Shown here: piece by piece, positions 2,641-63,905 of the stretch | Position numbering within the stretch: the first letter of the stretch is position 1 | How the letters are laid out: each line of letters opens with the position of its first letter | Assembly (NCBI RefSeq): GCF_030684315.1 | Contig: NC_081370.1 | Location: 36,784,728-36,848,727, forward strand | Length of the DNA: 64,000 nt | Source: Stegostoma tigrinum | Taxonomy: Eukaryota | Direction of reading: 5' to 3' | Notes under the pieces: generated by a model | What the model was told of the DNA's origin: nothing | Seen by the model: the letters and a program-made list of their open reading frames with translations, nothing else | Databases searched by the model: none | Program-made: the position numbers and the translations under genes

Positions 2641-2649
2641 TCTCTCTGA

Positions 2650-6785: not shown

Positions 6786-7401
6786 GAGATAATGGGAACT
6801 GCAGATGCTGGAGAATTCCAAGATAATAAAATGTGAGGCTGGATGAACACAGCAGGCCAAGCAGCATCTCAGGAGCACAAAAGCTGACGTTTCGGGCCTA
6901 GACCCTTCATCAGAGAGGGGGATGGGGTGAGGGCTCTGGAATAAATAGGGAGAGAGGGGGAGGCAGACCGAAGATGGAGAGAACCAGCCCAGTTCGTCCC
7001 CTCCCCCCACCGCACCACACAACCAGCCCAGCTCTTCCCCCCCACCCACTGCATCCCAAAACCAGTCCAACCTGTCTCTGCCTCCCTAACCGGTTCTTCC
7101 TCTCACCCATCCCTTCCTCCCACCCCAAGCCGCACCCCCATCTACATACTAACCTCATCCCACCTCCTTGACCTGTCCGTCTTCCCTGGACTGACCTATC
7201 CCCTCCCTACCTCCCCACCCATACTCTCTCCACCTATCTTCTTTACTCTCCATCTTCGGTCCGCCTCCCCCTCTCTCCCTATTTATTCCAGAGCCCTCAC
7301 CCCATCCCCCTCTCTGATGAAGGGTCTAGGCCCGAAACGTCAGCTTTTGTGCTCCTGAGATGCTGCTTGGCCTGCTGTGTTCATCCAGCCTCACATTTTA
7401 T
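6786..7401. mobile_element. Penelope-like element (family A), inverted/fold-back insertion
   Basis: Left arm is the reverse complement of the right arm; near-identical to the 3' end of the ORF-bearing copy at 60541-62075; 15-bp TSD taaacatacaggtta at 6771-6785 and 7402-7416. Confidence 0.9.
7314..7341 (+). ncRNA. Minimal hammerhead ribozyme-like motif (PLE family A)
   Basis: CTGATGA-a-GGGTC-ta-GGCCC-GAAA-CGTC: both catalytic-core boxes, a 5-bp stem II and a GUC triplet. Identical copies at 6886-6913(-), 12422-12449, 32730-32757(-) and 61984-62011. Stem I is weak (about 2 bp). Confidence 0.7.
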
Positions 7402-7779
7402 TAAACATACAGGTTAAAAGGTTTACAAGAAGGACATAGAAAACAGCAGAGGGGTAGAGGAGCATTACTAATTATGGCAAGGGAGGATGTAATGAGGGCA
7501 AAGCAGCCAGTGGAGACCTTGTGAGGAACTGAGGAACCTTAAAGGAACTAAAACCATAATAGGTTTATCATACAGACCACGTGGCAGCAGCTCAGAAACG
7601 CTAGATCGTATAAATGATGAAATTAGGCAACTATGTAGCAAAGGCAAAGAAGTATTAGTGGGGGATTTTAATCTTAATATAAACTGGGAAAGACAGAAAA
7701 GCATCTACCAGAAAGGTTGTGAACTCCTAGAGTGTGTTGATGTAGTTTACTACGGCAGTATGCCTCGGATGCTACATGG

Positions 7780-8490
7780 CACCAGGTTATAGCTCAACAG
7801 GCTTATTTGAAATCACACAAGCTTTCAGAGCACAGCCCAATTGACAGGTGCAGTGAGAGAGAAGAGCACACAGACACAGGGTTTATAGGCTGCGAGATGA
7901 AGGGCAGAGAGATCAAAAGATCATATAAATGGTATGAGTGGAGTGTCAGATAATAAGTCTCTGCAGGCGACCAAGAGTGTTAGACGGCGAGTAAAGTGTC
8001 AACAGCTGAATAACCAGCGAAGGTCATGACCTATAATTCTATTAAATGAGGCAGAGAGATGATTACAAAAAATTTAAAATAAGGTGGTGCTGGAGACAAG
8101 CCAAATGACTGGAATAACACGACGGGTATAACAGTCGCATGCTGAGGGTCTATCCAAAGTCACAAGTAATTCAAAAGTGTCCAAACTAGTTAAGGTAGAG
8201 AAATCACAACAATTTATCAAGGCGATGGTGTCAAAACAGGACAGTGAGGAAGATTTTATAGATATAGAACAGTGTGGTGGGGTCACATGTAGCACGACAT
8301 GACCCCAAGATCACGGTTGAGGCCATCTTCATGGATACGAAACTTGACTATCAGTCCCTGCTCAGAGATTCTGTGTTGTGTATCGTGAAGGCCGCCTTGG
8401 AGGACACTTATCTGAAGATCGGAGGTTGAATGTCCTTGACCGCTGAAGTGTTCCCTGACAGGGAGGGACCATTCCTGTCTGGTGATTGTC
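7780..8490 (-). mobile_element. Penelope-like element (family C) 3' fragment
   Basis: Minus strand 8290-8490 reads LPVREHFSGQGHS..DLQISVLQG...EQGLIVKFRIHEDGLNRD, a PLE GIY-YIG C-terminus. An inverted copy of its 3' UTR lies at ~8580-8690. Confidence 0.7.
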
Positions 8491-8848
8491 GCCTTAACTG
8501 GGAGAGACAGAAAAGCATCTACCAGAAAAGAATTCCTAGAGCGTATTAACTTATTACCTTAAATTACCTTAATTATGTTTGTAAAGTTTTGAATTACTTA
8601 TTACTTTGGTTAAACCCTGGGCATATGACTCTTATACTTATCATGTTATTCCAGTCATTTGGTTTGTCTCCAGCACCCCCTTATTTTTAACTTTATTTCA
8701 TTCTATTGTAAATAACATTTCAGAAACAAAAATGGCCTGGATTTTTCACTGGCCAGACCATCATTTTTCCAGTATAGATAACAGTTGCATGTGGAAACCC
8801 TGCAGAACTCCCATCCCAGAACACCCCAAAGGAATTGCCCAGGATATC

Positions 8849-8978
8849 CTCTCGGATTAAGGGTCTAGGCCCGAAACATCAGCTTTTGTGCTCCTGAGAT
8901 GCTGCTTGGCCTGCTTGTTCATCCAGCTCCACACTTTGTTACCTTGGATTCTCCAGCATCTGCAGTTCCCATTATCAC
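8849..8978 (+). mobile_element. Short PLE family A terminal fragment
   Basis: Matches the family A 3' end; 13-bp TSD tgcccaggatatc at 8836-8848 and 8979-8991. Confidence 0.85.

Positions 8979-9977: not shown

Positions 9978-9978
<1 letters not shown>

Positions 9979-10011
<33 letters not shown>
9979..10011. repeat. (CA)n microsatellite
   Basis: About 16 perfect CA units. Confidence 0.98.
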
Positions 10012-10013
<2 letters not shown>

Positions 10014-11901: not shown

Positions 11902-12544
11902 ACCCTTTCCACTCCCCCTCCCATTCTCTTGATGACATGTCCATCATGGGCCTCCTGCACTGCCACAATGATGCCACCCGAAGGTTGCAGGAACAGCAAC
12001 TCATATTCCGCCTGGGAACCCTGCAGCCTAATGGTATCAATGTGGACTTCACCAGTTTCAAAATCTCCCCTTCCCCAACTGCATCCCTAAACCAGCCCAG
12101 TTCGTCCCCTCCCCCCACCGCACCACACAACCAGCCCAGCTCTTCCCCCCCACCCACAGCATCCCAAAACCCGTCCAACCTGTCTCTGCCTCCCTAACCG
12201 GTTCTTCCTCTCACCCATCCCTTCCTCCCACCCCAAGCCGCACCCCCATCTACCTACTAACCTCATCCCACCTCCTTGACCTGTCCGTCTTCCCTGGACT
12301 GACCTATCCCTTCCCTACCTCCCCACCTATACTCTCTCCACCTATCTTCTTTACTCTCCATCTTCGGTCCGCCTCCCCCTCTCTCCCTATTTATTCCAGT
12401 TCCCTCTCCCCATCCCCCTCTCTGATGAAGGGTCTAGGCCCGAAACGTCAGCTTTTGTGCTCCTGAGATGCTGCTTGGCCTGCTGTGTTCATCCAGCCTC
12501 ACATTTTGTTATCTTGGAATTCTCCAGCATCTGCAGTTCCCATT
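11902..12544 (+). mobile_element. PLE family A, 5'-truncated copy
   Basis: GIY-YIG C-terminus (EQQLIFRLGTLQPNGINVDF) plus 3' UTR; 15-bp TSD atatctgacatgctt at 11887-11901 and 12545-12559. Confidence 0.9.
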
Positions 12545-12931
12545 ATATCTGACATGCTTGTTTATATCTGTCAGACAGGGCTCCCTGATTGGGCCGGATC
12601 AACAGCCCCAGTCATATTCTATGAATTCCTCCTGGCTGACCTCATTATAATCACTATAAGCATGCGAAACTGCCAATTCCCTGAGGAATAGGTTCCTGCA
12701 TGGGCCAGTTTGGAGGTGAGAATAAAACTATCTGTGACAAATAAAGGTAATTCAAAGCTTTTTCTGTTTCGGGACCCTGCAGCTTTCTGGACTCAATAAT
12801 TGAGTTCAACAACTTTAGGGCTTGAGCTTTCCCATGTCCTAACCCCAACCCCAGTCTGCTATTATACACAACCCATTAATAGCTATTCAGCCTCCTAGCT
12901 GGGTCGTTATCCATTCCTTTATCTGTCCAAC

Positions 12932-13092
12932 AAAACAGAAGTTGCTGAAAAAGCTCAGCAGATCTGACAGCATCTGAGAAGAAAAATTAGAGTTAATGTT
13001 AACTCTGATTTTGTTTTCTTCACAGATGCTGCTAGAGCTTTTCTAGCAACTGCTGCTTTTGTTCCTGATTTACAGTATCCACAGTTTTCAGT
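12932..13092. mobile_element. Palindromic (fold-back) short element derived from a PLE family B terminus
   Basis: Imperfect inverted arms centred on gagttaatgttaactc; 15-bp TSD ctttatctgtccaac at 12917-12931 and 13093-13107. Confidence 0.75.
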
Positions 13093-13204
13093 CTTTATCT
13101 GTCCAACTGCTTTCTCTTTTGGGCTCTATCCCCACCTACTGTTTACTCCTTACCCACTTCCCCTACTCTTTCTTCTGGATATAAACCAACATTTTCCTAG
13201 CTAC

Positions 13205-13310
13205 TGTCAGTTCTGAGGAAAGGTCACTCGACACGAAATGTTAACTCTCATTTCTCTCCACAGATCTGCCAGTGCCAGACCTGCTGATCTTTTCCAGCAA
13301 TTTCTGGTTT
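13205..13310 (+). mobile_element. PLE family B terminus with hammerhead-like motif
   Basis: agtt-CTGAGGA-aaggtcactcgacac-GAAA-tgtt-aact (stem I agtt/aact). Related termini at ~23817-23915, 34260-34360(-) and 63776-63905. Confidence 0.65.
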
Positions 13311-13359
13311 AGGTGGAGAAGCTGCATGGTCAGACAGCACCATGCAGCAAAAATGCTGA

Positions 13360-18060: not shown

Positions 18061-18298
18061 CTTGTAGGTGTTGATTTACAACGCTCTCCAGTCGATCTAA
18101 CCTTTCCCTCAGCCTTTGGTTCTCCCTCTTGTCCTCTCCCAGTTTAAGTTCAGGTAAGGGCGGCTGCACTTTGATGTATCCGCTGCCCTGGTAGTTGGTC
18201 ATCCAGCCGACATAGATGAGGCACAGCAGATTGCTGACTCCGCTCAGGATCACACAAGTGGAGACCAAAGTTTTAGTTTTCCTGCCACAGTAACCCAT
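18061..18298 (-). CDS. GALNT18: Polypeptide N-acetylgalactosaminyltransferase 18-like, first coding exon (cytoplasmic tail, TM anchor, stem)
   Basis: MGYCGRKTKTLVSTCVILSGVSNLLCLIYVGWMTNY...ERLDRLESVVNQHLQ closely resembles the vertebrate GALNT18 N-terminus (MVCTRKTKTLVSTCVILSGMTNIICLLYVGWVTNY...ERLDHLENVIKQHIQ, recalled). 238 nt, ending at a phase-1 donor CAAG|GTAAGA. No further exon was recognised in 1-18000. Could be a paralogue. Confidence 0.9.
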
Positions 18299-18379
18299 GT
18301 TTGCAGCAGTACGGAGATGGAGCGACCTCTTTCTCTCTCCAGTCTCCTGGAATTTCACAGGTCAATTTCCGCAGCCAGG

Positions 18380-18960: not shown

Positions 18961-20675
18961 GTGGGGATGAGATTGCTCGGGAGCTGTAAACAGGGCATGA
19001 ATCGCTTGAGCATTGAGCAACACTGAGGAAGGTCTCCTCTCTGAACATCTTTAAATTTGTGCCTATTATGTGGCCGGTTTTAATACTTTCCGTTACGACT
19101 CTATAAGTTAAAATCCACTCCGTGTTGGTGTTAACCATGTCATGTCATTGCAGAAGCCCAGTGTATCCAGAGCTCATCCTTCGAGCCTACAGTTTATTCT
19201 TCACACCATATTTGACTCTGTTAAAAAGTCAGTTTAATACATTTAGGATCAGTTCGCCCTCCTAGTGAAGTGACAACAATGCTCATCAGCATTTTACATA
19301 TTCCAACAACCATGTTGTCCTTCCTTTGAATTCACTGCAGCAAAATATCCTTTACATTAGTCCGGATATTCAGTATAATCTGAAATAAACAAATGCAGAT
19401 GGTGGTCTAAAACCTTCATCAGAAGAATCACTGGACTTGAAATGTTTGCTCTGCTTTCTTCCCACAGTTGATGCCAAGTGAGCTGAGTTTCACCAGCAAT
19501 TTCTGTTTTTGTTCCAGATCTTCAGTGCTGCGTTTATAAAGATTCCAGCCTCTACCGCTACTGTGCACTGCAGTCTCCATCTAAACCAACAAGTGAAGAT
19601 TTAATAAGTATGAACTATTGGACAGAGAACTGGAGAAGGGACAAGAATATGGCAAAAATATAATCAGATTATCAACACATATTTATATATCACTTTGATG
19701 AAACATCCCAAGATGCTTCACAGGAACATTAAATAAAATCCTGATTTTGAGACCTCTTGGTCAGCTGACTAATAGCTTGGTCAAAAAGGAAGGCTTTTAA
19801 GAAATGTTTAAAGGAGACAAAACCGAAACGTCAGCTTTCCTGCTCCTCTGATGCTGCTTGGCCTGCTGTGTTCATCCAGCTCCACATTTTGTTATGTCTA
19901 GAGAATGGAGAGGGTCAAGGGGTTAAGTTCCATAATTTAAGATCAAAGCAATTGAAGATATGGCAACCAAGGGCAGAACAATTGTGATTGGGAATGCACA
20001 AGAGGAACACCAAGGTCTCAGAAAATTGTGGGTTGGACAGGATCATAGGGATAGGCAGGGATGAAGCCATGGAGGGATTTGTAAACAAGGTTGAGGGGTG
20101 GACTTGTTGAGAGTCAGGACATGGGCAGCAAAGTTGTGATTGACCTCAAGTTTTAAAGAGAGTCAAAAAGACCAAAAACTACTATAGGTCAGGGTAACTG
20201 ACAATACAACTGCTGCAAAACAAATTGCTGTGATTCACTAAACACACATCAGGCAAATACTTCATGATCCTACATAATAAATGGAGGATTATAAATCCAT
20301 TAGCTTCCTTTAACAGTGGATTCTCTCGAGAGATGGTGTATTAAGAAAATACGTACGGACTTGCATTTCTATAGTAAAAGCAAAATACACTGGATGTTGG
20401 TAATTTGAAATAAAAACTGAAAGTGCTGAAGAAACTTATTATGTCTGGCAGCATCTGTGGAAAGAGAAAAAAACAAAATATTTCAAGTCCAAAATAACTT
20501 CTTCAGAACTAATATCTAATATCGAAAGAATTCTAAAGAAGTATTAAATCAAGCTTGAAACAGTAACTTGTTCCTCTTCAAAGTTGCTGCCAGATGTTTT
20601 AATTTCTTCCACTAATTTTTGTTTCTATTGAATTTTTGTGGTACCTATCACAACTTCAAGCCCCCAAATGATTTA

Positions 20676-22980: not shown

Positions 22981-23046
22981 GCTATTAACCTTGAATTTGT
23001 TGGGTTAGCTGAAATAAAATGACATATGAAATGAAAACAGATGAAA

Positions 23047-23668
23047 GAGATAATGGGAACTGCAGATGCTGGAGAATACGAGATAACAAAGTGTGGAGCT
23101 GGATGAACTCAGCAGGCCAAGCAGCATCTTAGGAGCACAAAAGCTAACATTTCAGGCCTAGACCCTTCATCAGAAAAGGGGGATGGAGAGAGGGGGAGGC
23201 GGACCGAAGATGGATAGAGGAGAAGATAGGTGGAGAGGAGAGTATGGGTGGGGAGGTAGGGAGGGGATAGGTCAGTCCGCGGAGGATGGACAGGTCAAAA
23301 GGGCGGGATGAGGTTAGAAGGTAGGAAATGGAGGCGCAACTTGAGGTGGGAGGAGGGGAAAGGTGAGAGGAAGAACAGGTTAGGCAGGCGGGGACGAGCT
23401 GGGCTGGTTTTGGGATGCAGTGGGGGAAGGGGATATTTTGAAGCTGGTGAAATCCACATTGATACCATTGGGCTGCAGGGTTCCCAAGCAGAATATGAGT
23501 TGCTGTTCCTGCAACCTACGGGTGGCAACATTATGGCACTGCAGGAGGCCCAGGATGGACATGTCATCTAAGGAATGGGAGGGGGAGTTGAAATGGTTTG
23601 CGACTGGGAGGTGCAGTTGTTTATTGCGAACCAAGCGGAGGTGTTCTGCAAAGCGGTCCCCAAGCCTT
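23047..23668 (-). mobile_element. PLE family A (older subfamily), 5'-truncated
   Basis: HLPVANHFNSPSHS...QQLIFCLGTLQPNGIN; hammerhead-like motif at 23146-23173(-). Confidence 0.88.
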
Positions 23669-24124
23669 CTTGATTGGAATGCTAATCAATTTGATGGTGT
23701 TCTAATGATTAGAAAAGTCACTGGTTGTAATGTTTCTGAAACAATGCGTGTGTTTAATTAGTGTTTAAACTCAGCTGTAATGGACTAAACTGTCACAGTA
23801 ACTCTGAAACAAAAACTGAGGAAGGGTCACCAGACACAATACATTAACTCTCTTTTTTTCCTTCACGTATGCTGCCAGACCTGCTGGGCTTTTCCAGCAA
23901 ATTTGGTTTTGTTCCAGTAACTCTGAAAGTCTGGAGTCCTGTTTTAAAATAGAAATAGTGAATCAGATGTGATAGTGCGACTATTATCAACCAAAAAGCG
24001 AGGGCTTGATCAGAAGAGATAGTAGGAACTGCCGATGCTGGAGAATCTGAGATAACAAGGTGTAGAATTGATGAACACAGCAGGCCAGGCAGCATCAGAG
24101 GAGTAAGAAGGCTGACATTTGATC

Positions 24125-27449: not shown

Positions 27450-29090
27450 TCTGACTCATTGTTTTATTCCCCAAAATACCCTAGATTTGGAGAAGACTCC
27501 ATTAGACTGGAAAATAGCAATTGTAAACTAAGATAATAAAGTGTGAAGCTGGATGAACACAGCAGGCCAAGCAGCATCTCAGGAGTACTAAAGCTGACGT
27601 TTCAGGCCTAGAAATGTCAGCTTTTGTGCTCCTGAGATGCTGCTTGGCCTGCTGTGTTCATCCAGCTTCACACTTTATTATCTTGGATTCTCCAGCATCT
27701 GCAGTTCCCATTATCTCTGAAGCAATTGTAAACTCTTTTATTTAAAAGGAGAGGGAGACATAAAGCAGGAAACAACAGGCCAGTTAGTTTTAATCCGTAA
27801 TTCGGGCAATGTTAGAAGCTATTTTTAAAGATATTATAACAGGGTACTGAGAAAAATTCAAGGTGAGCAGGCAGAGTCAACATGGTTTCGTGAAAGGATT
27901 TAACCAATTTATTGTAGTTCTTTGAGGAAATAACTTGCGTTGTGGATAGAGGGGAACCAATAGATTTACCATCTTTGGGTTTCCAGAAACCATTTGATTA
28001 GGTGCTACTTAAGAGGGTCTTGCAGAAAATAAAAATTAATTGCATATAAGGTAACATATTGGCATGGATAGAAGATTGACCTGCTAACAGGAAACAGAGA
28101 GTTTCCAGTTGATAAGATGTAATAAGTAGTGTGCCACAGGGATTTACAATTTATATAAATGACTTTGTAGAGAATAACTAAAGAATGCTTAGTAAATTTG
28201 TTGATGACCCAAATATGAATAGGCAAGTAAGTCATGAGGAGTACATGGGAGGCTATAAGGGGATATAGCTAGATTGAGTGAGGTGGCAAAGGTCTGGCAC
28301 AAAGTATAATGTGGGATAAGATGGAATTGTCCATTTCTGCAAGAAGAATAAAAAGGAAGTATATTATTTAAGTAGAGAAGGATTGCACAGCTCTGAGATG
28401 TAGAGAGATCTGGGTATCCTATTGTATGAATTGCAAAAGGTTAGACAGGGTACAGCCAATAATTAGGAAGGTTAACAGATTTTTTATTTAATACAAGAGA
28501 AATTGAATAAGAGGGTGGTTATACTCAGTCATAAAGGGCATTGATGAGAGCTCGTCTGTGTAGTATTGGTCAACTTACATAAGCAAAGATTTAAATGAAT
28601 TTTGGAAACAGTTGAGAGAAGGTTTATTAGAATCATAACTTGAAATGGAATTGACTTATGAGAAAAGGTTGGAAAGTCTAGCTCTGTATCTGTTGGAGTT
28701 TAGAGCAGTAAGAGGCAACTTAACAGAAGCATTCAAGAGTCTGAGGATGCTTGACAGAGTATCATGGAAAGGACTTTCCCTCTTGGTTTGTCATAATTTA
28801 GAACTAAGGGTCATTGTTTAAAAATAAGTGGTTGCTTGTTCAAGACCAAGAAAAGGAGTTTTTTTAACAGTTTCATGAGTCTTTAGAAGACCTTACCTCA
28901 AACGCCAGTGGAAGGAGAGTCTTTGCATATTCTCAAGGTAGAGGTAGATGGATTTCTGATAAGCAAGTGATAAGGATTATCGTGGGTAGGTGGGATCATG
29001 GACTAATCTAATCTTATTCAATGATCTTATTCATTACAGGAACAGGTATGAGGGGCTGAGTTGTCTACGCTTGGTCCTATTTCATATGGT
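27450..29090 (+). mobile_element. Decayed CR1 LINE (RT region to 3' end)
   Basis: DWKIA.V, SQHGFVKG, FQKPFD.V and KFVDD motifs, with many stops. Confidence 0.75.
27530..27720. mobile_element. About 190-bp palindromic PLE family A derivative (MITE-like)
   Basis: Near-perfect inverted arms centred on gctgacgtttcaggcctagaaatgtcagc; 14-bp TSD agcaattgtaaact at 27516-27529 and 27721-27734. Confidence 0.88.
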
Positions 29091-32665: not shown

Positions 32666-33716
32666 AATAATAAAATGTGAGGCTGGATGAACACAGCAGG
32701 CCAAGCAGCATCTCAGGAGCACAAAAGCTGACGTTTCGGGCCTAGACCCTTCATCAGAGAGGGGGATGGGGGGAGGGAACTGGAATAAATAGGGAGAGAG
32801 GGGGAGGCGGACCGAAGATGGAGAGTAAAGAAGATAGGTGGAGAGAGTGTAGGTGGGGAGGTAGGGAGGGGATAGGTCAGTCCAGGGAAGACGGACAGGT
32901 CAAGGAGGTGGGATGAGGTTAGTAGGTAGCGGGGGGTGCGGCTTGGGGTGGGAGGAAGGGATGGGTGAAAGGAAGAACCGGTTAGGGAGGCAGAGACAGG
33001 TTGGACTGGTTTTGGGATGCAGTGGGTGGGGGGGAAGAGCTGGGCTGGTTGTGTGGTGCAGTGGGGGGAGGGGACGAACTGGGCTGGTTGAGGGATGCAG
33101 TAGGGGAAGGGGAGATTTTGAAACTGGTGAAGTCCACATTGATACCATATGGCTGCAGGGTTCCCAGGCGGAATATGAGTTGCTGTTCCTGCAACCTTCG
33201 GGTGGCATCATTGTGGCAGTGCAGGAGGCCCATGATGGACATGTCATCAAGAGAATGGGAGGGGGAGTGGAAATGGTTTCCCCTACTGCATCCCTCAACC
33301 AGCCCAGCTCTTCCCCCCCACCCACTGCATCCCAAAACCAGTCCAACCTGTCTCTGCCTCCCTAACCGGTTCTTCCTCTCACCCATCCCTTCCTCCCACC
33401 CCAAGCCGCACCCCCCGCTACCTACTAACCTCATCCCACCTCCTTGACCTGTCCGTCTTCCCTGGACTGACCTATCCCCTCCCTACCTCCCCACCTACAC
33501 TCTCTCCACCTATCTTCTTTACTCTCCATCTTCGGTCCGCCTCCCCCTCTCTCCCTATTTATTCCAGTTCCCTCCCCCCATCCCCCTCTCTGATGAAGAG
33601 TCTAGGCCCGAAACGTCAGCTTTTGTGCTCCTGAGATGCTGCTTGGCCTGCTGTGTTCATCCAGCCTCACATTTTATTATCTTGGAATCTCCAGCATCTG
33701 CAGTTCCCATTATCTC
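32666..33716. mobile_element. PLE family A, large fold-back insertion (about 1.05 kb)
   Basis: A minus-strand copy (32666-~33278) is joined to a plus-strand copy (~33279-33716); 14-bp TSD taatactatagcat at 32652-32665 and 33717-33730. Confidence 0.92.
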
Positions 33717-35159
33717 TAATACTATAGCATTATATTTCTATCCCAAATATTTTTCAAATAGGATTGTAGTTATTTTACCCAATATCTCCTTTTTTAAAAT
33801 TCTGGAATGTGAGCATTATAGTTAAAGTAATCATTTCTGCCCATCCCTGGTTTCCGCTGAACTGATTGATTTTCTAGGCCATTTCAGAGAATAGTTAAAC
33901 TTCAACCATATCCTTTTCATCTTTGTGGGTCTGAAGTCACATGTAGGCCAAACCAGGTAACAACAGAAGATTCCCTTCCCTAAAGGAGATGACTGAACCA
34001 GATTCGCTTTGAGAAGAATAGTTACCTGGTCAGCATTAGATTACTTTTTAATTTCAGATATCATTGAATTCAGATTTCATCATTTTCCACAATGGAATTC
34101 AAACCCATTTCCCAAGAAAAGCTTGGATCTATGAATCACTGGCTCGGTACCATCAGCACTATATCACCACCCACTTTGTGACTCATTAACATACTTTGTT
34201 TTATAATGCTGCTGTGAAGGGGCTTTGTATATTTTCATGTTCAACTCACTATATAAATGGAACAAAACAGAAGTTACTGGAAAAGCTCAGCAAGTCTGGC
34301 AGCATCTGTGAAGAAAAAAATCAGAGTTAACATTTCAGGTCTGGAGACCCTTGCTCAGAATATCAGTTTCAGGTCGGGACCCTTCAACAATCCTGATCCA
34401 AAACGTTGACTCTCCTGCACCTCTGATGCTGCCTGACCTGCTGTATTCCTCCAGCTCCACACTGTTTTTACTCTGACTTCAGCATCTGCTGTTCTGCTAT
34501 GTCCAAGTGACTTAAAACACACAGTGCTGTTAGGAAGAGAGTTTGACCCAGGATGATGAAGGAATGGTGTACATTTCTAAGTCAGGATGGCGAGTAGCTT
34601 GGGCGAGATCTTTCAGGTGGTGGTGGTCGAGTGCATCCTGTAGTTTGTACACACTGCTGCATCTGTGTTTTGGTGCTGAAGGGAGTGAATATTGAAAGTG
34701 GTGATTGAGGTGCCAATCAAGTAAGCTGCTTTGTCCAGGATGATGTTAAGATTGTGCGTTATTGGAACTGCATCCGTCTAGGCAGGTGAAGAGTATTTCA
34801 TCTTACTTGTTATAACCCATTTAATTCACTAGTTCCCTTTAGAAGAGGTAATTCTGCTGTCTTAATGTAGTCTGACCTACATGTGATTCCAGATGTGGTC
34901 GACTCTTAACTGCACTCTTGAATGGCTGAGCAAGCCATTCAGTTCATAGAATCATAGAATCCCTAAAGTGTGGGAACAGGCCACTTGACCATCAAGTTCA
35001 CACTGACTCTCCGAAGAACATCCCACCCTGACCCACCTATCTACTCTATCCCTGTAAGCCTGCATACCCCAAGGCTAATTCACTGAATCTGCACATTCCT
35101 GGACACTATGGGCAATTTAGCATGGCCAACTCACCTAACCTGTGCAACTTTGGACTGTG

Positions 35160-36499: not shown

Positions 36500-36936
36500 T
36501 TTGGACTGTGGTAGGAAGCGAGTACCCATAGGAAACCCGTATAGACACACAGAGCATGTACAAACTCCACACAGACAGTCGCCCAAGGATTGAATTGAAT
36601 CCAGGTCTTTGGCACTGTGAGACAACAGTGCTAACCACTGAGCCACCATGCCATCTTCTTCATATCTTCATATAGGTCACTATGCCACCCTGGTTCAAGG
36701 ACAATTAGGAATAGGTAACAATTGCTCACCTTACCAGTGACACCAATAGCCCATGAATTAATAAAACAGACTTATATTTATATAATTCCTTTCACAAGTA
36801 TGGGACATCCCAAAGTGCTGCTTCACAGCCAATTAATTATTTTTGGAATATAGCATCCACTTTAGCATAGGAAACACGACAATTTGTGCACAGCAAAATT
36901 TCACAAAAGCTAATGCGTCAATGATGCTGTAACTCT

Positions 36937-43485: not shown

Positions 43486-44486
43486 CCATGGAAATTCATT
43501 ATAACAAAGGTTTAGTTTTGGTGCTTTTGACCTTGCTTTCGAAGACACTTGCTGTTTGCCTGGGTATTTAGCCACACTTGTGGTCTGTATTTGAGTTTCC
43601 TTGCCTGTATTCTGTTACTTTCACACGTTGCTTGGTAGGTAGTACAATGATTTCTTGATTCAGAAGGTTGTAGTTTAAGTTCCATGTTTGCTGATACTCC
43701 AGTGTAGTACTGAGAAAATATCACATTGTCAAAAATGCTCTCTTTTAAATGTTAACCAAAGCCCTGTCTGCTCCCTTGTGTAGAAGTAAAAACTTCCATG
43801 GTGCTATTTAAAAGAAAAGCAGGGGAGTGTTCATTGGCTATCTGACTAATGTCTGTCCTTCAAGCAACAACATTTGAAAAAATAAACATGTTATCTGGCA
43901 AATATCATATCGATGTTTGTGGGAACTTCCTGGGCATATGTTGGCTGTCACATTTTCAATGGTTCAACCATGACTTCACTTCAAAAGTACTTCAGGATGG
44001 CCCAAAGTGTATTATAATTAATGAAATGCCTTATCAGGGGGAAGTAACAAAGTGCTGGAGGAAGCCTGGCAGCAGCTGTGGAGGGGGAAACAGAGCTAAC
44101 ATTTCAAGTGTAGAATGACTCTTCCTGCACTTGCAGTATTTTGCTTTTATTAGGACTGGGAGCCCTTCCTTTACTGAATTTTCTTCAGAAGAAGCTGGGC
44201 ATAGAATAGGCTAGAATCAGTCTAGGTCAGAAGTTGCTGAAAACTTAATACAACCATGGAATGACCTGTCATTGTAAACTAAGTTACTGGTAATGAGCAG
44301 TTCGAGTCATCTACATGTTGAAAGCAGATGATTATTTCCATACCATGCAGTTTGAGTTATCTTTAAATAAAGCAATTTGAAGCAAATGTTTCATCTCCAT
44401 CACTAGACTGTCTGGCTGTAGACTGGATATTTTTTACCTCAGTTAAGATGGGGTGAAGTTGACCAGAGATTGCAAATTCTGCTTCA

Positions 44487-45027
44487 ATGGGATGCAGTGG
44501 GAGGAGGGGAGATATTGAAGCTGGTGAAATCCACATTGATACCATTAGGCTGCAGGGTTCCCAAACGGAATATGAGTTGCTGTTCCTGCAACCTATGGGT
44601 GACATCATTATGGCACTGCTGGAGGCCCAGGATAGACATGTGCATCCCAAAACCAGTCCAGCTTGTCCCTGTCTGCCTAACCTGTTCTTCCTCTCACCTA
44701 TCCCCTCCTCCCACCTCCATTTCCTACCTACTAACCTCATCCTGCCCCCTTGACCTGTCTGTCCTCCCCGGACTGACCTATCCCCTTCCTACCTCGCCAC
44801 CCGTACTCTCCTCTCCAACTATCTTCTCCTCTATCCATCTTCAGTCTGCCTACCACCCCCTCCCTATTTATTTCAGAATCCTCTCCCCATCCCCCTTTTC
44901 TGATGAAGGGTCTAGGCCCGAAACGCCAGCTTTTGTGCTCTCAAAATGCTGCTTGGCCTGCTGTGTTCATCCAGCCCCACACTTTGTTATTTTGGATTCT
45001 CCAGCATCTGCAGTTCCCTTTATCTCT
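44487..45027. mobile_element. PLE family A composite (inverted 5' piece plus forward 3' end)
   Basis: 44487-44640 is minus and 44641-45027 is plus; hammerhead-like motif at 44900-44927 with GTC changed to GCC. Confidence 0.85.
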
Positions 45028-45569
45028 GTTTATAAAAAGGAAATTGCTTGACAAATTCAAGGTTTGTTTTGATGTAACCAATGGTATAGACAAAGAGGAG
45101 CCACCTTGTTCTAGAAATCACCAGAGGAAACAATTTTTGTCTATCTCTTTATCATCTTAAACATTTCAATTCAACCACCCCTCAAATTGTTTTAATCAAC
45201 CTATTCTGACGTTATCACCTTTGGAGCAGACGGGACTGGAATCCAAGCCTCCTGGCTATCGGCACAACCACTGTGCCAAAGGAGCACCTTTCTTAATTTT
45301 CTATAACTTGGCCAATAGTGATGTGGGAAACCTCATTTCATAATTTAACCTTCTATGTACTGGTTATCATTCTGAGGAATCTCTATTGAGTTACTCCAAG
45401 GCCAATATAGTAGAGGAGACAAGTGGTGTAATGGTACTGTCACTCGACAGATGGGTCAGAGGGTCAGGTTACTGTTTTGGGCACAAATGTTAAAATTTTA
45501 CTACAGTGGCTAACATAAAACTAGCCTCCATAATGCTTTGTCAATTGTCATAAAGTCCCATTTGAACAA

Positions 45570-47210
45570 AGAATAAAACCACAGGAATGGAGCCCTTCGG
45601 CCCTCTAAACTTGTGGCCACTACATTTTGCTCTTCCATACTAAAACTGTCTTCACTTACAGGATCCATATACTTCTATTCCTTCCTATTCATGTATTCGT
45701 CCAGGTGCTTCTCGAATGCTGCTATTGTGCCGGATTCTACAACCTCCTCTGGCAGCACATTCCAGCCACTCACCACCCTTTGTGTGAAAAACGTGCCTCG
45801 CAAGTCTCTTAGAAAGTCCATCTCCTTACAAACCATCCCCCCCCCCCACCGACCACCACCACACCATGAACATGTGAACCCTTGTAACCGAGCCCCCACT
45901 CTGGGAGAAAGCTTTGCACTTTTCACACTATCTATGCCATTTACAATCTTAAAATCATATTGGGTCACTCTTCGACCTCCTTCATTCCAGTGAAAAATAA
46001 ACCCAGCCTAGCCATATTTTCTTCACAGCTAGAATCCCCCATACCAGGCAACATCCTGGTAAACCTTTTCTCTATCCTCTCCAAAGCATCAACATCCTTC
46101 TGATAGTGTAGTGATCAGAACGATAAATAATAGGTCAAAGTGTGGCTTTACTAAAGTTCTGTAAAACTGCAGCGTAACTTGTCTATCCTTATACTCAATC
46201 TCCCTACTAATGAAGGCAAACATGCCATAATTTCTGAAGAAGGGTCCCGACCTGAAACGTCAGTTTTCCTGTTCCTCTGATGCTGCTCGGCCAGCTGTGT
46301 TCTGCCAGCTCCACACTGTTATCTCTGATTCCAGCATTGGCAGGTTTTACTATCTCTGATGCTATAAGCTCCTTTTTTTTTCAAAATTACCTTATCTACC
46401 TGTGCTGCCACCTTCAGTGATCTCTGGAACTGCACACCCAGATCCTTCTGCCTATCAATACTGCTAAGGGTTCTGCCATTCACTGTATAATTTCCACCTG
46501 TTTTTGACCTTACAAAATGCATCTCACATTTGTCCAGATTAAAACCCACCTGCCATTTTTCTGCCTCTGCCTCCATATCCTGCTGTATCCTCTGACAATC
46601 CTCATTATCTGCAACTCCACCAAACTTTGTATCGTCTGCAAACTTACTAATTAGACCAGCCACATTTTCTTCTAAATCATTTATGTAGATCACATCAGCA
46701 GAGGTCCCAGCACTGATCCCTGTGGAACACCCTGTCACAGCCCTCAATTCAGAAAAACATTCTTCCACCACTACTCTTTGTCTCCTCTGACTAAGCCAGT
46801 ACTGGACCCATCTCGCCAGCTCACCCGATACCACGTGACTTTGCCTTTTGTACCAGTCTGCCATGAGGGACCCTGTCAAAGACATTACTGAAGTCCATGT
46901 AGACAACATCAACAACTTTTCCTTCTGCAATCATCACCTCCTTAAAAAACTCAATCAAGTTAGTGAGGCTTGACTTCACCGGCACAAAAACATGCTGACT
47001 ATTGCTAATAAGTCCATTTGCTTCTAAGTTCATATACATCTTGTTCCTGAGAATCTTTCCCAATAATTTCCCTTTAATGATGTGAGACTTGGGCCTGTAA
47101 TTTCTAGGATTATCTCTGCTATCCTGTTTAAATAATGGAACAACTTTGGCTATTCTCCAGTCCTTTGGGACCCTTGTGGCCAAAGAGGATACAAAAATGT
47201 CTGTCAAAGC
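45570..47210 (-). mobile_element. CR1 LINE RT to 3' end, decayed, with a small PLE terminus inserted at ~46230-46357
   Basis: DWRIAKVVPLFK, YMDFSNVFDRVPH, SKFADDTK and FFTQRVVSGWN.LP motifs. Confidence 0.88.
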
Positions 47211-48229: not shown

Positions 48230-48625
48230 ATCATGGGATGAGGCCGGGTGTGGGGAGATGTTGAAACTGGTAGAGGCCATGTTTAGGCCAATAGGCTGTA
48301 GGCTCCTGAGGCGGAATGTGAGGTGCTGCTCCTCCAGATTGCAGGTGGCATCATTGTGACACTGGAGGAGGCCCAGGATGTTGTTGTTGTTTGTCGCATA
48401 CAGAGCACAGATGCTCTACAAAACAGCCTCCCACCTCACTGACCAATCCTGACCATTGCACTCACCTATTACTACCCCACCCACCTTCCCTAGCCCCCTC
48501 CCCATTTCTGAAAGGTCCTGACCCAAAACTTTCCTGCTCCTCTGATGCTGCCTGGCCTGCTGTGTTCCTCCAGCTCCATACTTTGTTATCTCTGTCTCCA
48601 GCATCTGCAGTTCCTGCTATCTCAT
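48230..48625. mobile_element. Degraded PLE inverted composite
   Basis: Minus-strand GIY-YIG C-terminal piece followed by a plus-strand terminus (gatgctgcctggcctgctgtg...cagcatctgcagttcc). Confidence 0.65.
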
Positions 48626-50104
48626 AAAATTAATATATTTTTAAAATCTTGACTAGGCCTTGTAGTTATTGAAGAAGGTCATTCCTTCATTACAGTTCAT
48701 GGGACCATACTCTAGGCAAACAGACTGCTCCATTTTCTAAATTACAAGAGTGATCACACTTAATATGTACTTCCTTGGCTATAAACCACTTTGCCATGTC
48801 TTGAGGCCGTGAAAGATGTTCTGAAAATACAAGTTTATTTAGAAGTACAGAAATTAATTTCTATTCCATGCTGCAGAAAACAAAACTAGCATTTTGTTGT
48901 CTTGGGGCATTCTTTGTAGAGCGAGGTGATCGCCAAAGGATCAAAGGTGACATGAGGAATTTTTTTTAACATTTTGAGTGGTTAGGATCTAAAACACATA
49001 GTCTGGAAGTATGGTGGACAGAGATTTATTTAGAGCTTTGAAAAAGAGATCAAATGAGCACCTGAACAGAAGAAATGTGCAGGGTTACACAAAAAGGTCA
49101 AAGGAGTAGGAGTTGCTAAATTGCTCCTGCAGAGAGCTGCCACAAACATGATGTGCCAGAGGCAGGTGTTCAAATCCCACCAGAGCTGCCAGAATTAGAA
49201 TTCAGTTAAAGAAATAAAGCTGGAATAGAAAGCTCGTCTCAGCACTGGCGACTCTGAAACTACTAGACTGACATAAAACATTACCGACTAATATCCTTTA
49301 GGGATGAAAATTTGCCGTCTTTTCACCAGCCTGGGTCTGGAGACACATATATGCCGGACTGGGGAAGGATGGCAGATTTCCATTCCAAAAGGACAATGGT
49401 GAGAACCAGTTGTGTTTTATGATAATTCGGTAGTTTCAATGTTGTCACTTTCTAATTACAGCTAAGCTTGCTGTGCCATTTCAGAGGGCAATTATGAATT
49501 AATTGGGTCGAGCAAGCTCAGTTGTATTTAAGAAAGTGATGAGCTATGCCTTTCTCAAGGGTAGAGAGATAGAGACATGTAATAAATTCTGTCCTTACCG
49601 ACGATGTTTATATCCTTTGAATGAATAAGACAAAGTTTGTATCAAGAATCTGGGGTACTTTGCTATTAAATTATTTTATTAAACTTGTGTTGTGACAGTA
49701 TTTTTAGCTTTGGACACCACTAAAGTAATACCTTGACAAGTAGGAATTTAATTAACTTTTGCATTAATTATCTAGCTCTTCTTTGACATTGCTTTAATTA
49801 AATATTTTAAATCCAGAACACTTGCATTGCTTCTCTCTTGAAACCAAATCTAACAAGAGGGTGATAATTATCCTCAGTGGATCACAATCAGATCCAATTA
49901 CTTTCAGAAGGAGGGAATAATCAAGGATAACAAGTAGCTGTCTTGAGGTTTTGCTCACAGATAATCTGGAGTCTGGTCGTAATATTCAGTAACAAAGGTG
50001 AAGCACTCCCCTCAGACTAAACCCAGATAATTACATCTGGCTGTAAACATCTGGAATGAATTGTAGCTATCTGCAAACCTACTGCCCATCCCCAAAACCC
50101 CTCT

Positions 50105-50499: not shown

Positions 50500-50700
50500 G
50501 GTGAGGTTGTTGACTTGTTGCCAAGCTGGCTTGTTCTCGTTCAGACATTTTGTCTCCATGCTAGGTGACATCATCAGTACAGCCTCCAATAAAGCGGTGT
50601 TATTCTACTCTGTTTGGAATTTATACTGTTTGGTCTATTATGGTGAGTAGTGTCATTTCCGGTTTTGATCTGCATGAGTTTTTATATGGAGTCCAATTCC
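50500..50700 (-). mobile_element. Probable PLE family D terminus with hammerhead-like motif
   Basis: Minus strand 50544-50577: CTGATGA-t-GTCACC-tagcat-GGAGAC-(A)AAA-TGTC. Confidence 0.55.
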
Positions 50701-51700: not shown

Positions 51701-53157
51701 CAGGTTTAAGGTCCACTCCTGATCCTAGTCACTCCTATTGCTACTTTGGTCTCCTTCAAATTTAATCAAGTTGGATTTTTTGCAGGTGTATTTATATGAA
51801 TACAATGTTCTGTCTCATGAAGTTGTGTTAAAAGATGTGACATCAGTTTGGGAACAAGTTTTAATTAATACAAGATAAGCTGGAGGGTGAATGTAACTTT
51901 AAATAATTTCATTGCTATTGCTTTAAATTTTGATTTGAACTTGCACTGTGGCATTTGGAGTACAGCTCTCACACAGAAATCAGATAGTTGAGAGTTCAAG
52001 CCACACTACAGAGGAATCCTTGACAGAGTTGCTTTGATTTTTGCAACTAAAATCAAGCATTCAAGCAGAGTTAAGTGTATTAAGAAGTGCTGTGGAAGTA
52101 ACTCAAATTACAAACAGCAGCCTCCAACTGTTGTGCATCTATTTGACTTCAGCTGTCAGTATGCCCTCAGCAGTACCTCAGGAGTGTCAGTATGAATTTT
52201 TACTTAAGTCTCTGTAGTAGAGCTTGAACCCTTGCCCTTCTGACTCAGTGCTGAGGTACTACTCACTGAATACTGCCTCTAATCCATGCCTCTCCTCTGA
52301 AAACAAAACACAGCCATCACAGTTCACTTTCACTAAATTTTAACAAGAACATCTGCCAGCCATTGAACAATCGGAACACCACATGAACACTTATATAACT
52401 TCCCAACAATATTTAGATCTGACTGCCTATGTCACAATCACTGTTTCACCATGGCCATCAATCAGTACAATATCCAGAATGCTTTTAGCAAACACCAAAT
52501 AAGGCACTGGAACATTCGAGTAAATATGCAACATTCAACTGTGTAAATTCTATATTCTTGGCAAAAAAAAAGTGTCAGAAAGTGAATTAAAGGCTGTTAT
52601 TTAACTTAAGTTGATGATTATAAAATGATAGAATCTCACTGCTTCAGTTTATTTCATGCAAATCTCATTGCAGCCTTCTGACACTCTTTGCCAATATAAA
52701 TTGGTGCATGACTGAGTTTCATGTCTGCCATATTATTTTTTTTTATAAATGATCATGAGCTGTCACCATTGAAAGACACTTTGTATCAGCTCAGGGCTTC
52801 TTGCAGTGGAGGAAGAATTGTCCAAGGGACTGGCCAGCTCTAAAGGTGACACTGATACCTGCACCAAATCCCCCACTAGTTTCAAGAGATGCATAGCGTC
52901 ATTCTGACTGTATGGATTCAATGGCAGAAAATAAACTTTAACAAAACCAAAACACTGTGGCTGCTGGAAATTTGTAATAAAAACCAAAAGATGATTGGAA
53001 AACACAGCAGATCAGGCATCATTTGTGGAGAGAAACAGAGCTAATGTTGGAGGTTGATGATATTTCATCACAATCGAAACTTTAATCTTCTTTGTGATAA
53101 AGCAGATTAAATATTCATGACATTGTAAACTCCTGCAATGACCAATTACATCGCTTT

Positions 53158-60540: not shown

Positions 60541-62075
60541 GCCCCAACCCCACCTCTTCCTCCGGTACATTGATGACTGTATCGGCGCCGCCTCTTGCTC
60601 CCCAGAGGAGCTCGAACAGTTCATCCACTTCACCAACACCTTCCACCCCAACCTTCAGTTCACCTGGGCCATCTCCAGCACATCCCACACCTTCCTGGAC
60701 CTCTCAGTCTCCATCTCAGGCAACCAGCTTGTAACTGATGTCCATTTCAAGCCCACCGACTCCCACAGCTACCTAGAATACACCTCCTCCCACCCACCCT
60801 CCTGCAAAAATTCCATCCCCTATTCCCAATTCCTCCGCCTCCGCCGCATCTGCTCCCACGATAAGACATTCCACTCCCGCACATCCCTGATGTCCAAGTT
60901 CTTTAAGGACCGCAACTTTCCCCCCACGGTGATTGAGAACGCCCTTGACCGCGTCTCCCGCATTTCCTGCGACACATCCCTCACACCCCGCCCCCGCCAC
61001 AACCGCCCAAAGAGGATCCCCCTCGTTCTCACACACCACCCTACCAACCTCCGGATACAACGCATTATCCTCCGACACTTCCGCCATTTACAATCCGACC
61101 CCACCACCCAAGACATTTTTCCATCCCCTCCCCTGTCTGCTTTCCGGAGAGACCACTCTCTCCGTGACTCCCTTGTTCGCTCCACACTGCCCTCCAACCC
61201 CACCACACCCGGCACCTTCCCCTGCAACCGCAGGAAATGCTACACTTGTCCCCACACCTCCTCCCTCACCCCCATCCCAGGCCCCAAGATGACATTCCAC
61301 ATTAAGCAGAGGTTCACCTGCACATCTGCCAATGTGGTATACTGCATCCACTGTACCCGGTGCGGCTTCCTCTACATTGGGGAAACCAAGCGGAGGCTTG
61401 GGGACCGCTTTGCAGAACACCTCCGCTCAGTTTGCAACAAACAACTGCACCTCCCAGTCGCAAACCATTTCCACTCCCCCTCCCATTCTCTTGATGACAT
61501 GTCCATCATGGGCCTCCTGCACTGCCACAATGATGCCACCCGAAGGTTGCAGGAACAGCAACTCATATTCCGCCTGGGAACCCTGCAGCCATATGGTATC
61601 AATGTGGACTTCACCAGTTTCAAAATCTCCCCTTCCCCTACTGCATCCCTAAACCAGCCCAGTTCATCCCCTCCCCCCACTGCACCACACAACCAGCCCA
61701 GCTCTTCCCCCCCACCCACTGCATCCCAAAACCAGTCCAACCTGTCTCTGCCTCCCTAACCGGTTCTTCCTCTCACCCATCCCTTCCTCCCACCCCAAGC
61801 CGCACCCCCAGCTACCTACTAACCTCATCCCACCTCCTTGACCTGTCCGTCTTCCCTGGACTGACCTATCCCCTCCCTACCTCCCCACCTACACCCTCTC
61901 CACCTATCTTCTTTACTCTCCATCTTCGGTCCGCCTCCCCCTCTCTCCCTATTTATTCCAGTTCCCTCCCCCCATCCCCCTCTCTGATGAAGGGTCTAGG
62001 CCCGAAACGTCAGCTTTTGTGCTCCTGAGATGCTGCTTGGCCTGCTGTGTTCATCCAGCCTCACATTTTATTATC
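60541..62075 (+). mobile_element. Penelope-like retroelement family A, young 5'-truncated copy with uninterrupted RT C-terminus and GIY-YIG endonuclease
   Basis: LRYIDD RT motif, FLDL, SIPYSQFLRLRRICS, C..C zinc-type motif (CNRRKCYTC) and VVYCIHCTRCGFLYIGET (GIY-YIG); about 405 codons without a stop to 61759; hammerhead-like motif at 61984-62011. Confidence 0.95.
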
Positions 62076-63765
62076 AATGATATAGCCCTACTGTTTGGGA
62101 TGGTGGTGTGATTATTCTTGATGTTTCCATCTATGGTGATACTCCTTGTTCTTCTCTTGAACTCTTGATGTTCTTCAAGAGATGATAGTTCATTCACCTG
62201 AATGCTTTTTTTCAATGCTGTATCATTCACCTGTCTGAAATCTTTTGGCCAATAGCCACGGGCACCTACTTGTGATACCAGATCAACCACTGTCTCCTTG
62301 TCCACCTTCACCTGAGTGATAGTTCTCTAATCTGAGGTCAACACTTTCTATTTTCCCAAACACTGCATTGGCAGTAGGATATACATGCTGCTGGATAAAT
62401 TGTGGGCATCATTTCATTGGAGCAACATGACCACAGAGATCCTGATGCTTCTTGTGACTTTTCCTTTTATATGAAGATTTGAAGATCTAGTTACGGCTGC
62501 AATAGCAGCTAAATGGAATCTTATGTTACACAATAAATGCAAGGAAAATGTAGCTTTAAAAGGGACTCAATTTTCCAACAGAATATTTGAACCTGTTCCT
62601 TGGCCACTTTGGTCACAGGGATAGATACCCATCTCATGCATCAAAGCAGAGTGTACCTTAGGACTTTTTACTGGATACCCGTTACTTGGATGCTCGCATC
62701 ACCTCTGTCTTGCCTTGCTGTTTAGCTAAGATACAAAGACAGGCAGCTGGTCATGGTTATCAGCAACAGCGAATCAAGTGAACATGTTAGCATATGGCAT
62801 CATGCTACGTCAAACTATGCCAGCAATAAATGTGTCAAACATGCTTCATGTAGGTCAACCAAGTAGCTAAGCCACAAAGTGTAAGGAAGCAATCCTTGGT
62901 CAAGTCATTGGGCACTGCCATCAGTCAGGGGTTCCATCATAGTTAGTGAAAGGCAGCATCTAATCTACATTCAGGGGCCTGGACACTGTCAGTTAGCTGT
63001 TTGAGCAGTCAGAATCAGGGATTCCATATCAGTATTAACTAAGGAGTGGGCCAAAGTCAGTCCTGCAGATCCACTCCATTACAACCAGCCGCAGAAATCC
63101 ATGGAACATAAGTTGGGGAGTTGTACAGAGATTGGTCAAGGATCTGACCACTCATTACTTGGAGCTTTCTAACCAACTTGCTTTGGGGATGGGCCTTGGT
63201 TATTCCTGGTATCCTGCTCACTGAAGTCAAGGTGGGGTATTGGGGCCATTGTTGTCATAGGGAACCTGTGAAGTCAATTATGGGATGATGAAGGGCTGGG
63301 ACAGTGATAATAGTCATCCCAGGAGGAAGGTGAGGATATTGAGCAGGAGAATCATTACCTTCAGCTTATTAGAATGCTACAGTACCAGGTGCAACAAGAC
63401 AAGCGGCACTTCACTGACATCCTGTTTCAAAAGATGTTGAGATGGTGCAGTAAATTTGTTGCTCAAAAGTCAATTGGTCCCTGTTTGTTCCCAGAAGCAA
63501 TTGATTTTTTTTTAAAAACACTAACAACAACAAAAGTGGACATTTTCAATTATCTTGAGGCTTCTCCGCGTGTAATGCTCCCACATGAATAAGATACCGT
63601 ATTACGCTAAATTGGGTAAGGGCAAGTGTTTCTCTAGGCTGGCTTCGAACACAGTCCGGTGCTAACCATGTAGTCTGTGTAGTTTGATTCTCACAGTGGC
63701 AGTTATAATGGCTGTTGATCAGACAGGTGGTGATATGAAAATAACAAGACATTTAAAAACAAACA

Positions 63766-63905
63766 TTCCTCAGAACTGAGGTAGGGTCACCGTACCTGAA
63801 ACGTTAACTGTGTTTTTTCCCTCACAGAAACTGCCAGACCTGTTGAGCTTTTCCAGCCACTTTGTTTTTGTTCCTGATTCACAGCATCCGCACTTCTTTT
63901 GGTTT
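63766..63905 (+). mobile_element. PLE family B terminus
   Basis: ctgaggtagggtcaccgtacctgaaacgttaact...ccagacctgttgagcttttccagc, the same family as 13205-13310. Confidence 0.65.

Follow-up and report, generated by a model that had tools for sequence, protein, structure and literature searches.

The window analysed here, a 64,000-nt stretch of the genome of the shark Stegostoma tigrinum (contig NC_081370.1, positions 36,784,728 to 36,848,727 of the forward strand), holds the first coding exon of GALNT18, an uncharacterised two-exon gene, LINE (long interspersed nuclear element) remnants and 30 element ends, of which 28 were assigned by profile search to two families, A and B, and the others to families C and D. 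These elements are almost certainly 5′-truncated 3′ ends of Penelope-like elements (PLEs) that carry a minimal type I hammerhead motif. The best overall explanation of the locus is probably that PLE ends of this kind are accompanied by short copies (stubs) made as run-off cDNAs from uncleaved capped RNA.

The longest family A copy codes for a PLE protein's C-terminal half (domains in Table 1). This protein has 226 relatives at E ≤ 0.001 among proteins of 707–2015 residues, the best of them 55% identical and most with a reverse transcriptase (RT); the RT thumb, CX4CXXC and GIY-YIG motifs are conserved in a 17-sequence alignment, in which the linker cysteines C226, C231 and C234 are invariant (17/17). 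The arrangement that marks EN+ PLEs, RT followed by a C-terminal GIY-YIG domain in one open reading frame (ORF), is found at 60548–61759 as its C-terminal half only. Pfam places the GIY-YIG domain of this ORF at E 0.005, under the family's curated cut-off; across 50 window ORFs its sole match was a LINE endonuclease remnant. Judged by its linker, family A is of the Neptune/Nematis type. Family A shares with these clades, as parts of PMC8557442 describe them, the RT, a CX2-5CxxC linker, GIY-YIG, 5′ truncation, inverted arms and an optional tail of 30–40 nt; it differs in that neither a full-length ORF between direct pseudo-long terminal repeats (pLTRs) nor a tandem copy is present within the window. 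The insertions show 5′ truncation, inverted pLTR arms, target-site duplications (TSDs) of 10–18 nt and an optional tail of ~38 nt, and comparison with public contigs places two 3′ ends ~38 nt apart, at 12513/12514 and about 12551. Copies in the window are solo or head-to-head, and the head-to-tail hammerhead ribozyme (HHR) units by which retrozymes are recognised were not found among them; a few tail-to-motif back-joints were seen in contigs. One relative, L020 (910–4176), has two direct pLTR hammerheads 3066 nt apart flanking the ORF, and offers a natural template for testing cleavage of a dimer. Viral contigs gave no match to the A/B or C DNA patterns and no relative with a PLE alignment, and the C pattern had one match in genome contigs (L081).

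Table 1. PLE-derived and host features of the window. Signed numbers are positions relative to C3 of the hammerhead, on which scale the cut site is +28.
Feature	Coordinates	Strand	Details
Family A compound insertion	6783..7403	.	Inverted arm 6783–6981 (intact 6913–6886, minus), direct arm 6982–7403 (intact 7314–7341); 15-nt TSD; within LINE remnant, GALNT18 intron 1 (as read here)
Family C decayed PLE 3′ end	7775..8486	-	GIY-YIG 8486–8307; TATAAA −40; motif 7847–7819, with broken box 1, stem I of 4–5 pairs, AGCU palindrome
Short solo family A copy	8848..8978	+	Starts −5/−4 from C3, abutting 13-nt TSD; decayed core
Family A copy	11902..12552	+	GIY-YIG end; intact core 12422–12449; full tail; 13-nt TSD
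Family B head-to-head pair	12928..13086	.	Joined at stem III palindrome; without box 1; 15-nt TSD
Only long family B copy	13087..13310	+	TATAAA −33; TCAGTT resembling an Inr (its A at −4); AGUU/AACU as stem I; stem II and palindrome decayed
GALNT18 first coding exon (host)	18062..18298	-	Residues 1–79
Old B-type copy	19422..19520	+	Ambiguous 5′ end
Short A-type copy	19823..19898	+	Starts +18, within hammerhead
Old B-type head-to-head pair	20399..20624	.	Cores 20506 (minus) and 20533 (plus); minus arm starts about −4
Older family A copy	23046..23667	-	GIY-YIG end; core 23173–23146, CpG-decayed
Short family B copy	23816..23914	+	Starts at C3, 6 nt past 14-nt TSD; GAAA decayed
Short A-type copy	24015..24120	-	Starts +21
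Family A head-to-head pair	27527..27720	.	Joined inside stem II / loop II; 14-nt TSD
Family A head-to-head compound	32667..33719	.	Intact 32757–32730 (minus); 33590 (plus) with stem II lesion; 18-nt TSD, 1 mismatch
B copy abutting A-type head-to-head pair	34254..34503	.	B core 34358 (minus) starts −2; arms +1, +11
Old A-type copy	35157..36600	-	Decayed ORF; core 35282–35255 decayed
Old B-type copy	44042..44126	-	Ambiguous 5′ end
Older family A copy, inverted 5′ part	44488..45028	.	Core 44900, cleavage triplet now GCC
Short old A-type copy	46230..46357	+	Starts −4/−3; core 46234–46261 intact
Old A-type copy	48231..48626	.	Core deletions; inverted GIY-YIG piece
Family D, single decayed motif	50500..50625	-	Motif 50577–50544, which keeps box 1 but not G12; tail rich in AC; TATAAA −48
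Very old B-type copy	52954..53074	-	Possible 9-nt TSD
Longest family A copy, 5′-truncated	60548..62075	+	RT with YIDD and thumb, CX4CXXC linker, GIY-YIG; stop 61757–61759; pyrimidine-rich 3′ untranslated region (UTR); TATA-like box −34; intact hammerhead 61984–62011; short tail
Family B copy	63756..63910	+	10-nt TSD; core 63776 with A9 lost; full tail; 20-nt inverted piece folds back at motif's 5′ edge

Several of the copies in Table 1 show further structure. At 34254–34503 a family B stub adjoins a family A hammerhead fragment, as if it had been inserted in another PLE end, and the 3′ UTR of the old A-type copy at 35157–36600 contains internal tandem duplications of ~96 nt (35347–35780). Head-to-head junctions lie on or near hammerhead palindromes (stem III, loop II and the TCAG/CTGA edge of B) at 12928–13086, 27527–27720, 34366–34503 and 63756–63790.

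The hammerhead motif was scored against 100 block-wise dinucleotide shuffles. A strict descriptor (CUGANGA, a stem of at least 4 pairs, GAAA and a CpG-tolerant CGUH) gave 8 matches in the window vs. a mean of 0.01 per shuffled window, and a relaxed descriptor gave 9 (D being added) vs. 0.05. An Rfam scan of the window, a check proposed in a preliminary description of this DNA made from its letters, returned no hammerhead family at E ≤ 1 and five unrelated weak matches below gathering scores. The recognition in that description of the minimal type I hammerheads of PLE pLTRs is borne out by the descriptor counts, the covariation given below and the PLE protein; the CUGANGA and GAAA boxes lie where it placed them (its minus-strand coordinates 6886, 23146 and 32730 being N17 positions), and it was right that stem III is reduced to a palindrome (positions 15.2–16.2; ACGU in families A and B and AGCU in C, with CpG decay in many copies) and that stem I of family A is very short, at 2 bp. 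Helix I has 4 bp in B and 4–5 bp in C. The same description gave every family a stem II of its own, which is true of C and D; A and B share GGGUC...GRCCY, cross-match in nhmmer and are homologous, differing mainly in loop length and stem I, and stem II of A, closed by a CUAG loop, has 4 bp instead of 5.

Box 1 could be located in 20 ends, which were audited, the other 10 being without box 1 or too decayed; six cores (6/20) were intact, with both boxes, the palindrome, a stem II of at least 4 pairs and a stem I of at least 2, and all six belong to family A (6913−, 7314, 12422, 32757−, 46234 and 61984, a minus after a coordinate denoting the minus strand). No single B, C or D copy has the full core (CUGANGA, GAAA, UH). 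The motif is present in each family A copy named in the preliminary description, with core or stem lesions at 23146−, 33590 and 44900, and the B, C and D copies that it named each have at least one broken element.

Family C, whose box 1 reads CUGUCAA, follows a GIY-YIG remnant ~460 nt upstream (8486–8307; independent E-value 6.5e-5, hhalign E 6e-6). A chance match was considered for it, since box 1 is broken and a loose C-like pattern alone is common by chance (4.4 per shuffled window), and was rejected on account of that upstream remnant; on the sequence evidence, C is a true but decayed third family and a PLE 3′ end. Family D is a candidate family represented by one decayed copy, in which G12 is lost; such a match has a chance level of 5% per window, and no ORF of D matched the family A protein profile. 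Its upstream frame and tail may be Poseidon-like.

For covariation, seven window copies were aligned with nine metagenome relatives picked for sequence diversity (16 sequences in total); the relatives derive from a protein-alignment scan of metagenomes that gave 440 related stretches; 80 loci were retained from these, and they contained 26 motif matches bearing a cleavage triplet. Pairs 1 and 2 of stem I, on which the relatives were unfiltered, are paired in all 16 sequences with 8 and 5 two-sided changes, respectively (13 in total). Stem II is 94% paired, with three pairs altered on both sides, a pairing that is partly built in because the relatives were pre-filtered on this stem. Pairing over the whole structure amounts to 88%, vs. 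66% in column shuffles and 19–39% in slid controls. The G10.1–C11.1 pair is GC in 12 of the 16 sequences, GU in 2 and unpaired in 2, and there is an extra base after A9. In two contig sets from two other organisms, X1 and X7, near-fixed differences flank the 28-nt core on both sides, and differences within the core are confined to four CpG positions among the 40 rows listed. The core is thus more conserved than its flanks, and the motif passes this refuting test set by the preliminary description. As read from these alignments, the motif is conserved, covarying and under selection.

The evidence for the origin of the stubs lies in where they begin. Thirteen well-mapped 5′ ends fall between −70 and +30: 7/13 lie at −6 to +3, 5/13 at +11 to +24 and 1/13 at −68, and a scan statistic for the seven gives p 0.004, or 0.026 under a null of −30 to +30. 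This strict event count excludes the low-confidence old copies 19422/19425, 20533, 44126 and 53074; a looser hand-curated count, which takes in old arms and both arms of pairs, gives 13/21, and ten long copies that start upstream of −70 lie outside both. The start of the copy at 8848 directly abuts its duplication. An arm starting at the cut site could be parsed only for the head-to-head pair at 12928–13086. Were the RNA 5′ end set by ribozyme cleavage, stubs would be expected to begin at +28, which they do not. Public contigs (sets X1, X7, X9 and X12) were compared over 12240–12570, and among the rows listed the only long heterogeneous 5′ loose end was at 12421 (−1), with 902 contigs in X9, 583 in X12 and 18 in X7; this loose end is A-rich, ending in CTTT, in X9 and X12. 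Tail joints back to 12418–12427 are present in contigs, and no loose-end row at 12450 was found among those listed. In the L011 group of metagenome relatives, the inverted arms L067 and L038 both begin at model position −4; a further two short copies have their starts near −26 and −55, and all others are long.

A TATA-like box stands upstream of this edge in several families. The sequence TATWWA occurs at −33 to −35 in B, in young A copies and in 44900 of the shark, TATAAA at −40 in C and a TATA-like box at −37 to −43 in the L011 group. At −4/−5, B resembles an initiator (Inr) and A a TCT initiator, likenesses that are weak taken singly. The 5′ edge of the motif likely marks the RNA start of the element, as far as the position of these boxes and ends can indicate. 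A splice acceptor was also tried as the cause of the 5′ boundary: B has CAG at −5 to −3, but the nearest AG in A is at −24, and the candidate was rejected because spliced copies would run into exon, not flank.

The stop could instead be structural, RT stalling or switching at the hairpin-rich motif or C-rich tract, or the cDNA folding back, on an RNA that starts further upstream. The five events at +11 to +24 and the head-to-head junctions on the stem III and loop II palindromes speak for this possibility, as does the interpretation of palindromic head-to-head junctions of rotifer PLEs as self-priming in a passage of PMC3846280, and stalling or fold-back probably accounts for the five internal junctions. 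As an account of the edge itself it is a serious alternative, though a less likely one: B and the L011 group lack the C-rich tract of A, yet have the same stop position, the stop sits at the far side of the hairpin, and the TATA spacing suits a start site.

Several observations weigh against a transcription start at the motif edge and a run-off origin of the stubs. No TATWWA was found within 45 nt in 35282 or 23173, or in the L010, L012/L015, L020, L026, L059, L031 and L035 groups; the TATAAA of family D is at −48; and the Inr and TCT likenesses are to short motifs of a kind that chance readily produces within a pyrimidine tract. Family A taken alone gives 3/9 (p 0.05), which is weak in the window, the five events beginning inside the motif (+11 to +24) are left unexplained by run-off, and family B has a single long reference, so that upstream subfamily differences could mimic truncation. 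In the contigs, 12421 is absent among the six rows listed for X1, trimming of older copies by local alignment at the 12420 mismatch pools ends on 12421, the X7 loose-end consensus is partly UTR-like, and X9 and X12 possibly come from the same source as the assembly. The one mapped PLE promoter, that of Drosophila virilis Penelope, is described in PMC2377424 as TATA-less, with a start 46 nt before an intron and well upstream of its hammerhead (PMC2377424 and PMC4209133, in part). Like the promoter proposed here, it lies within the pLTR, as does that of the rotifer A. vaga element Pen2a, with a putative TATA box plus Inr (PMC3846280, in part), and the D. virilis and Pen2a passages of PMC2377424 and PMC3846280 do not connect the start site with the edge of the hammerhead. 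In each of the four family A sequences aligned, the third pair of stem I is not formed; therefore, catalysis is not assured.

That last point raises the question of whether the family A motif is catalytically dead, kept as an initiator or protein-binding site after the third stem I pair was lost. Stem I has 2 bp in all A subfamilies seen, pair 2 is U·G in organisms A and B (95–99% at 12420), and in the predicted fold of the family A monomer CUGAUG pairs with CGUCAG, so that box 1 and the cut site are buried, with pairing probabilities of 0.69–0.99 over six bases; however, pairs 1 and 2 remain paired (C-G or U·G) and the core bases are all retained in the different subfamilies and organisms, and D. 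virilis Penelope also has a 2-bp helix I (PMC4209133, in part), so we regard a dead relic as unlikely. The L011 group shares the AGCUUU 3′ strand of family A, but has a G-C third pair. With 6/20 audited cores intact and a monomer fold predicted to bury the cut site, the "very dense population of potentially self-cleaving RNAs" of the preliminary description is an overstatement. Stem II of family A and the CUAG loop together form a self-complementary stretch of 12 nt (12430–12441 and other A copies), and two A copies are therefore predicted to pair through stem II plus stem III. Folded as single sequences, the tails of family A are not unusually stable (z from 0.8 to −0.2), and 13213 gives a modest signal (z −2.2).

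We give roughly even chances to the proposal that the short copies are run-off cDNAs from uncleaved capped RNA starting at the hammerhead. In the scheme that we infer beyond the 5′ boundary itself, the pLTR promoter would start transcription ~4 nt before CUGANGA; RT would prime within the RNA, at either of two sites in the tail some 90 and 130 nt downstream, in the way shown in vitro for the Poseidon element PAc of Anolis carolinensis, copy through the uncut site and run off the capped 5′ end of the RNA; and failure to jump to the RNA 3′ end would leave either an inverted arm or a stub of 95–135 nt. As a monomer the ribozyme would be largely inactive, cleaving only as a dimer or with the element's protein, and the dispersed genomic copies would be passengers. 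PAc RT primes internally near the 5′ pLTR-ORF junction, 5′-shortened templates give shorter products, the template is unprocessed, and hammerhead cleavage is protein-assisted, according to passages of PMC11167929 (Frangieh et al., 2024). The window elements share with PAc the two 3′ ends ~38 nt apart, copies that span the uncut site and AT-rich flanks; they differ in that PAc belongs to the Poseidon clade and its ORF starts inside the hammerhead (PMC11167929, in part), whereas the box 1 ATG of family A opens a frame of only 13 codons (12424–12465).

In an extension of this scheme, which we consider possible and less probable than not by some distance, transcription would start on the first strand of stem I, so that the ~32-nt ribozyme from cap to cut would form a terminal repeat of the RNA; RT priming at the 5′ pLTR tail would give a cDNA resembling a strong-stop product, the 3′ pLTR copy, once cleaved, would supply a matching RNA 3′ end for strand transfer in the manner of long terminal repeats, and the stubs would be failed transfers. 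If true, this would account for the short stem I, for the need for partial tandems, given a TATA box located upstream of where the RNA begins, and for retention of the ribozyme despite uncut templates.

The published alternative is a circle, in which pLTR hammerheads cleave as a dimer, the unit RNA is ligated and reverse-transcribed, and the stubs are random truncations (PMC4209133). It accounts for integrated copies that span the cut site and for tandem formation, and agrees with a motif under selection and with the self-complementary stem II of family A, for which the predicted cofold is −38.0 vs. −11.4 kcal/mol per monomer. For the stubs of this window it is nevertheless improbable: nothing would single out −4 on a circle, although ends cluster at that position, and HHR mutants had no effect on PAc insertion in the experiments described in PMC11167929.

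Positions 1–18061 are read as intron 1 of GALNT18, because exon 1 is the only GALNT18 exon within the window; the encoded residues are 96% identical to the whale shark protein, and a GC-rich stretch (~18480–19000) lies beyond this exon. The preliminary description placed copies inside host introns, and this holds for the putative intron 1 to a limited degree: in the sense of the GALNT18 pre-mRNA, 6913− is the single intact motif within its visible part, and the intact partner 7314 sits head-to-head on the opposite strand, so that no transcript carries both in tandem and the visible intron contains no tandem dimer. There is no sign of a host role for the intronic copies. That they are self-cleaving regulators of host pre-mRNA is very improbable, even with an intact, sense-oriented 6913− in intron 1 of GALNT18, for there is no intact same-strand partner in the visible part of the intron, the copy is young (95–99% identical to others) and lies within a LINE remnant, and a single minimal HHR showed no cleavage in vitro in assays described in PMC4209133. 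The uncharacterised two-exon gene on the minus strand (55581–55486 plus about 54729–53158; ~550 aa) is 78% identical to a bamboo shark protein and has no Pfam domain; relatives occur in sharks, rays, coelacanth, bony fish and amphibians, and its coding intron holds none of the motifs. LINE remnants with mutual DNA similarity lie at 7496–7789, 13360–14156, 36955–38976 and 45963–47252, with matches to an endonuclease at 7496–7789 and to RT at 38066–38896; a separate dispersed repeat family has several decayed copies (172–648, 24212–24715 and 56046–58209), and an assembly gap of 347 N occupies 25947–26293.

Minimal HHRs of metazoan PLEs were described by Cervera and de la Pena (2014; PMC4209133), where, in the parts available, the monomer did not cleave, dimer cleavage was low and coelacanth and Xenopus carried thousands per genome. 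The window motifs share with them the type I topology in a pLTR, a helix III that is only a palindrome, the extra base between A9 and G10.1, the G10.1–C11.1 pair and the occurrence of several families per genome, mostly as dispersed singles, and such HHRs are reported in the fish elements Xena, Poseidon and Neptune; family A differs in its 2-bp helix I, compared with 4–5 bp in Schistosoma and 2 bp in D. virilis only. No shark examples are named in the text or the searched supplement parts of PMC4209133, nor are 5′ ends of copies mapped there, and no clustering at the 5′ edge was found in the available part of PMC11167929. Non-LTR retrozymes (PMC7229834; bioRxiv 10.64898/2026.07.22.740005), present in one chondrichthyan sampled according to part of the latter, are likewise short non-coding PLE-related units with type I HHRs, but form tandem arrays, typically of canonical HHRs (both sources in part), whereas the window stubs carry minimal motifs and occur dispersed, as monomers or as inverted pairs. 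In the literature searched, no shark-specific report of PLE minimal HHRs was found, although shark motifs or 2-bp stems may already appear in Luense et al. (2017) or in some supplements, and no statement was found on 5′-edge clustering or strong-stop products for PLEs. Pseudo-LTR regeneration and the role of the PLE hammerhead are stated as open in passages of PMC2377424, PMC8557442 and PMC11167929.

PLE minimal HHRs, their family diversity and their high copy number are already published, and their density here is not new; as first stated, the finding only extends the known association of PLEs with hammerheads to sharks and has little weight. A 5′ boundary lying sharply at the ribozyme's front edge would, on the other hand, separate a capped linear template from the circular-RNA model, and the young, very abundant shark families supply the numbers for testing that boundary.

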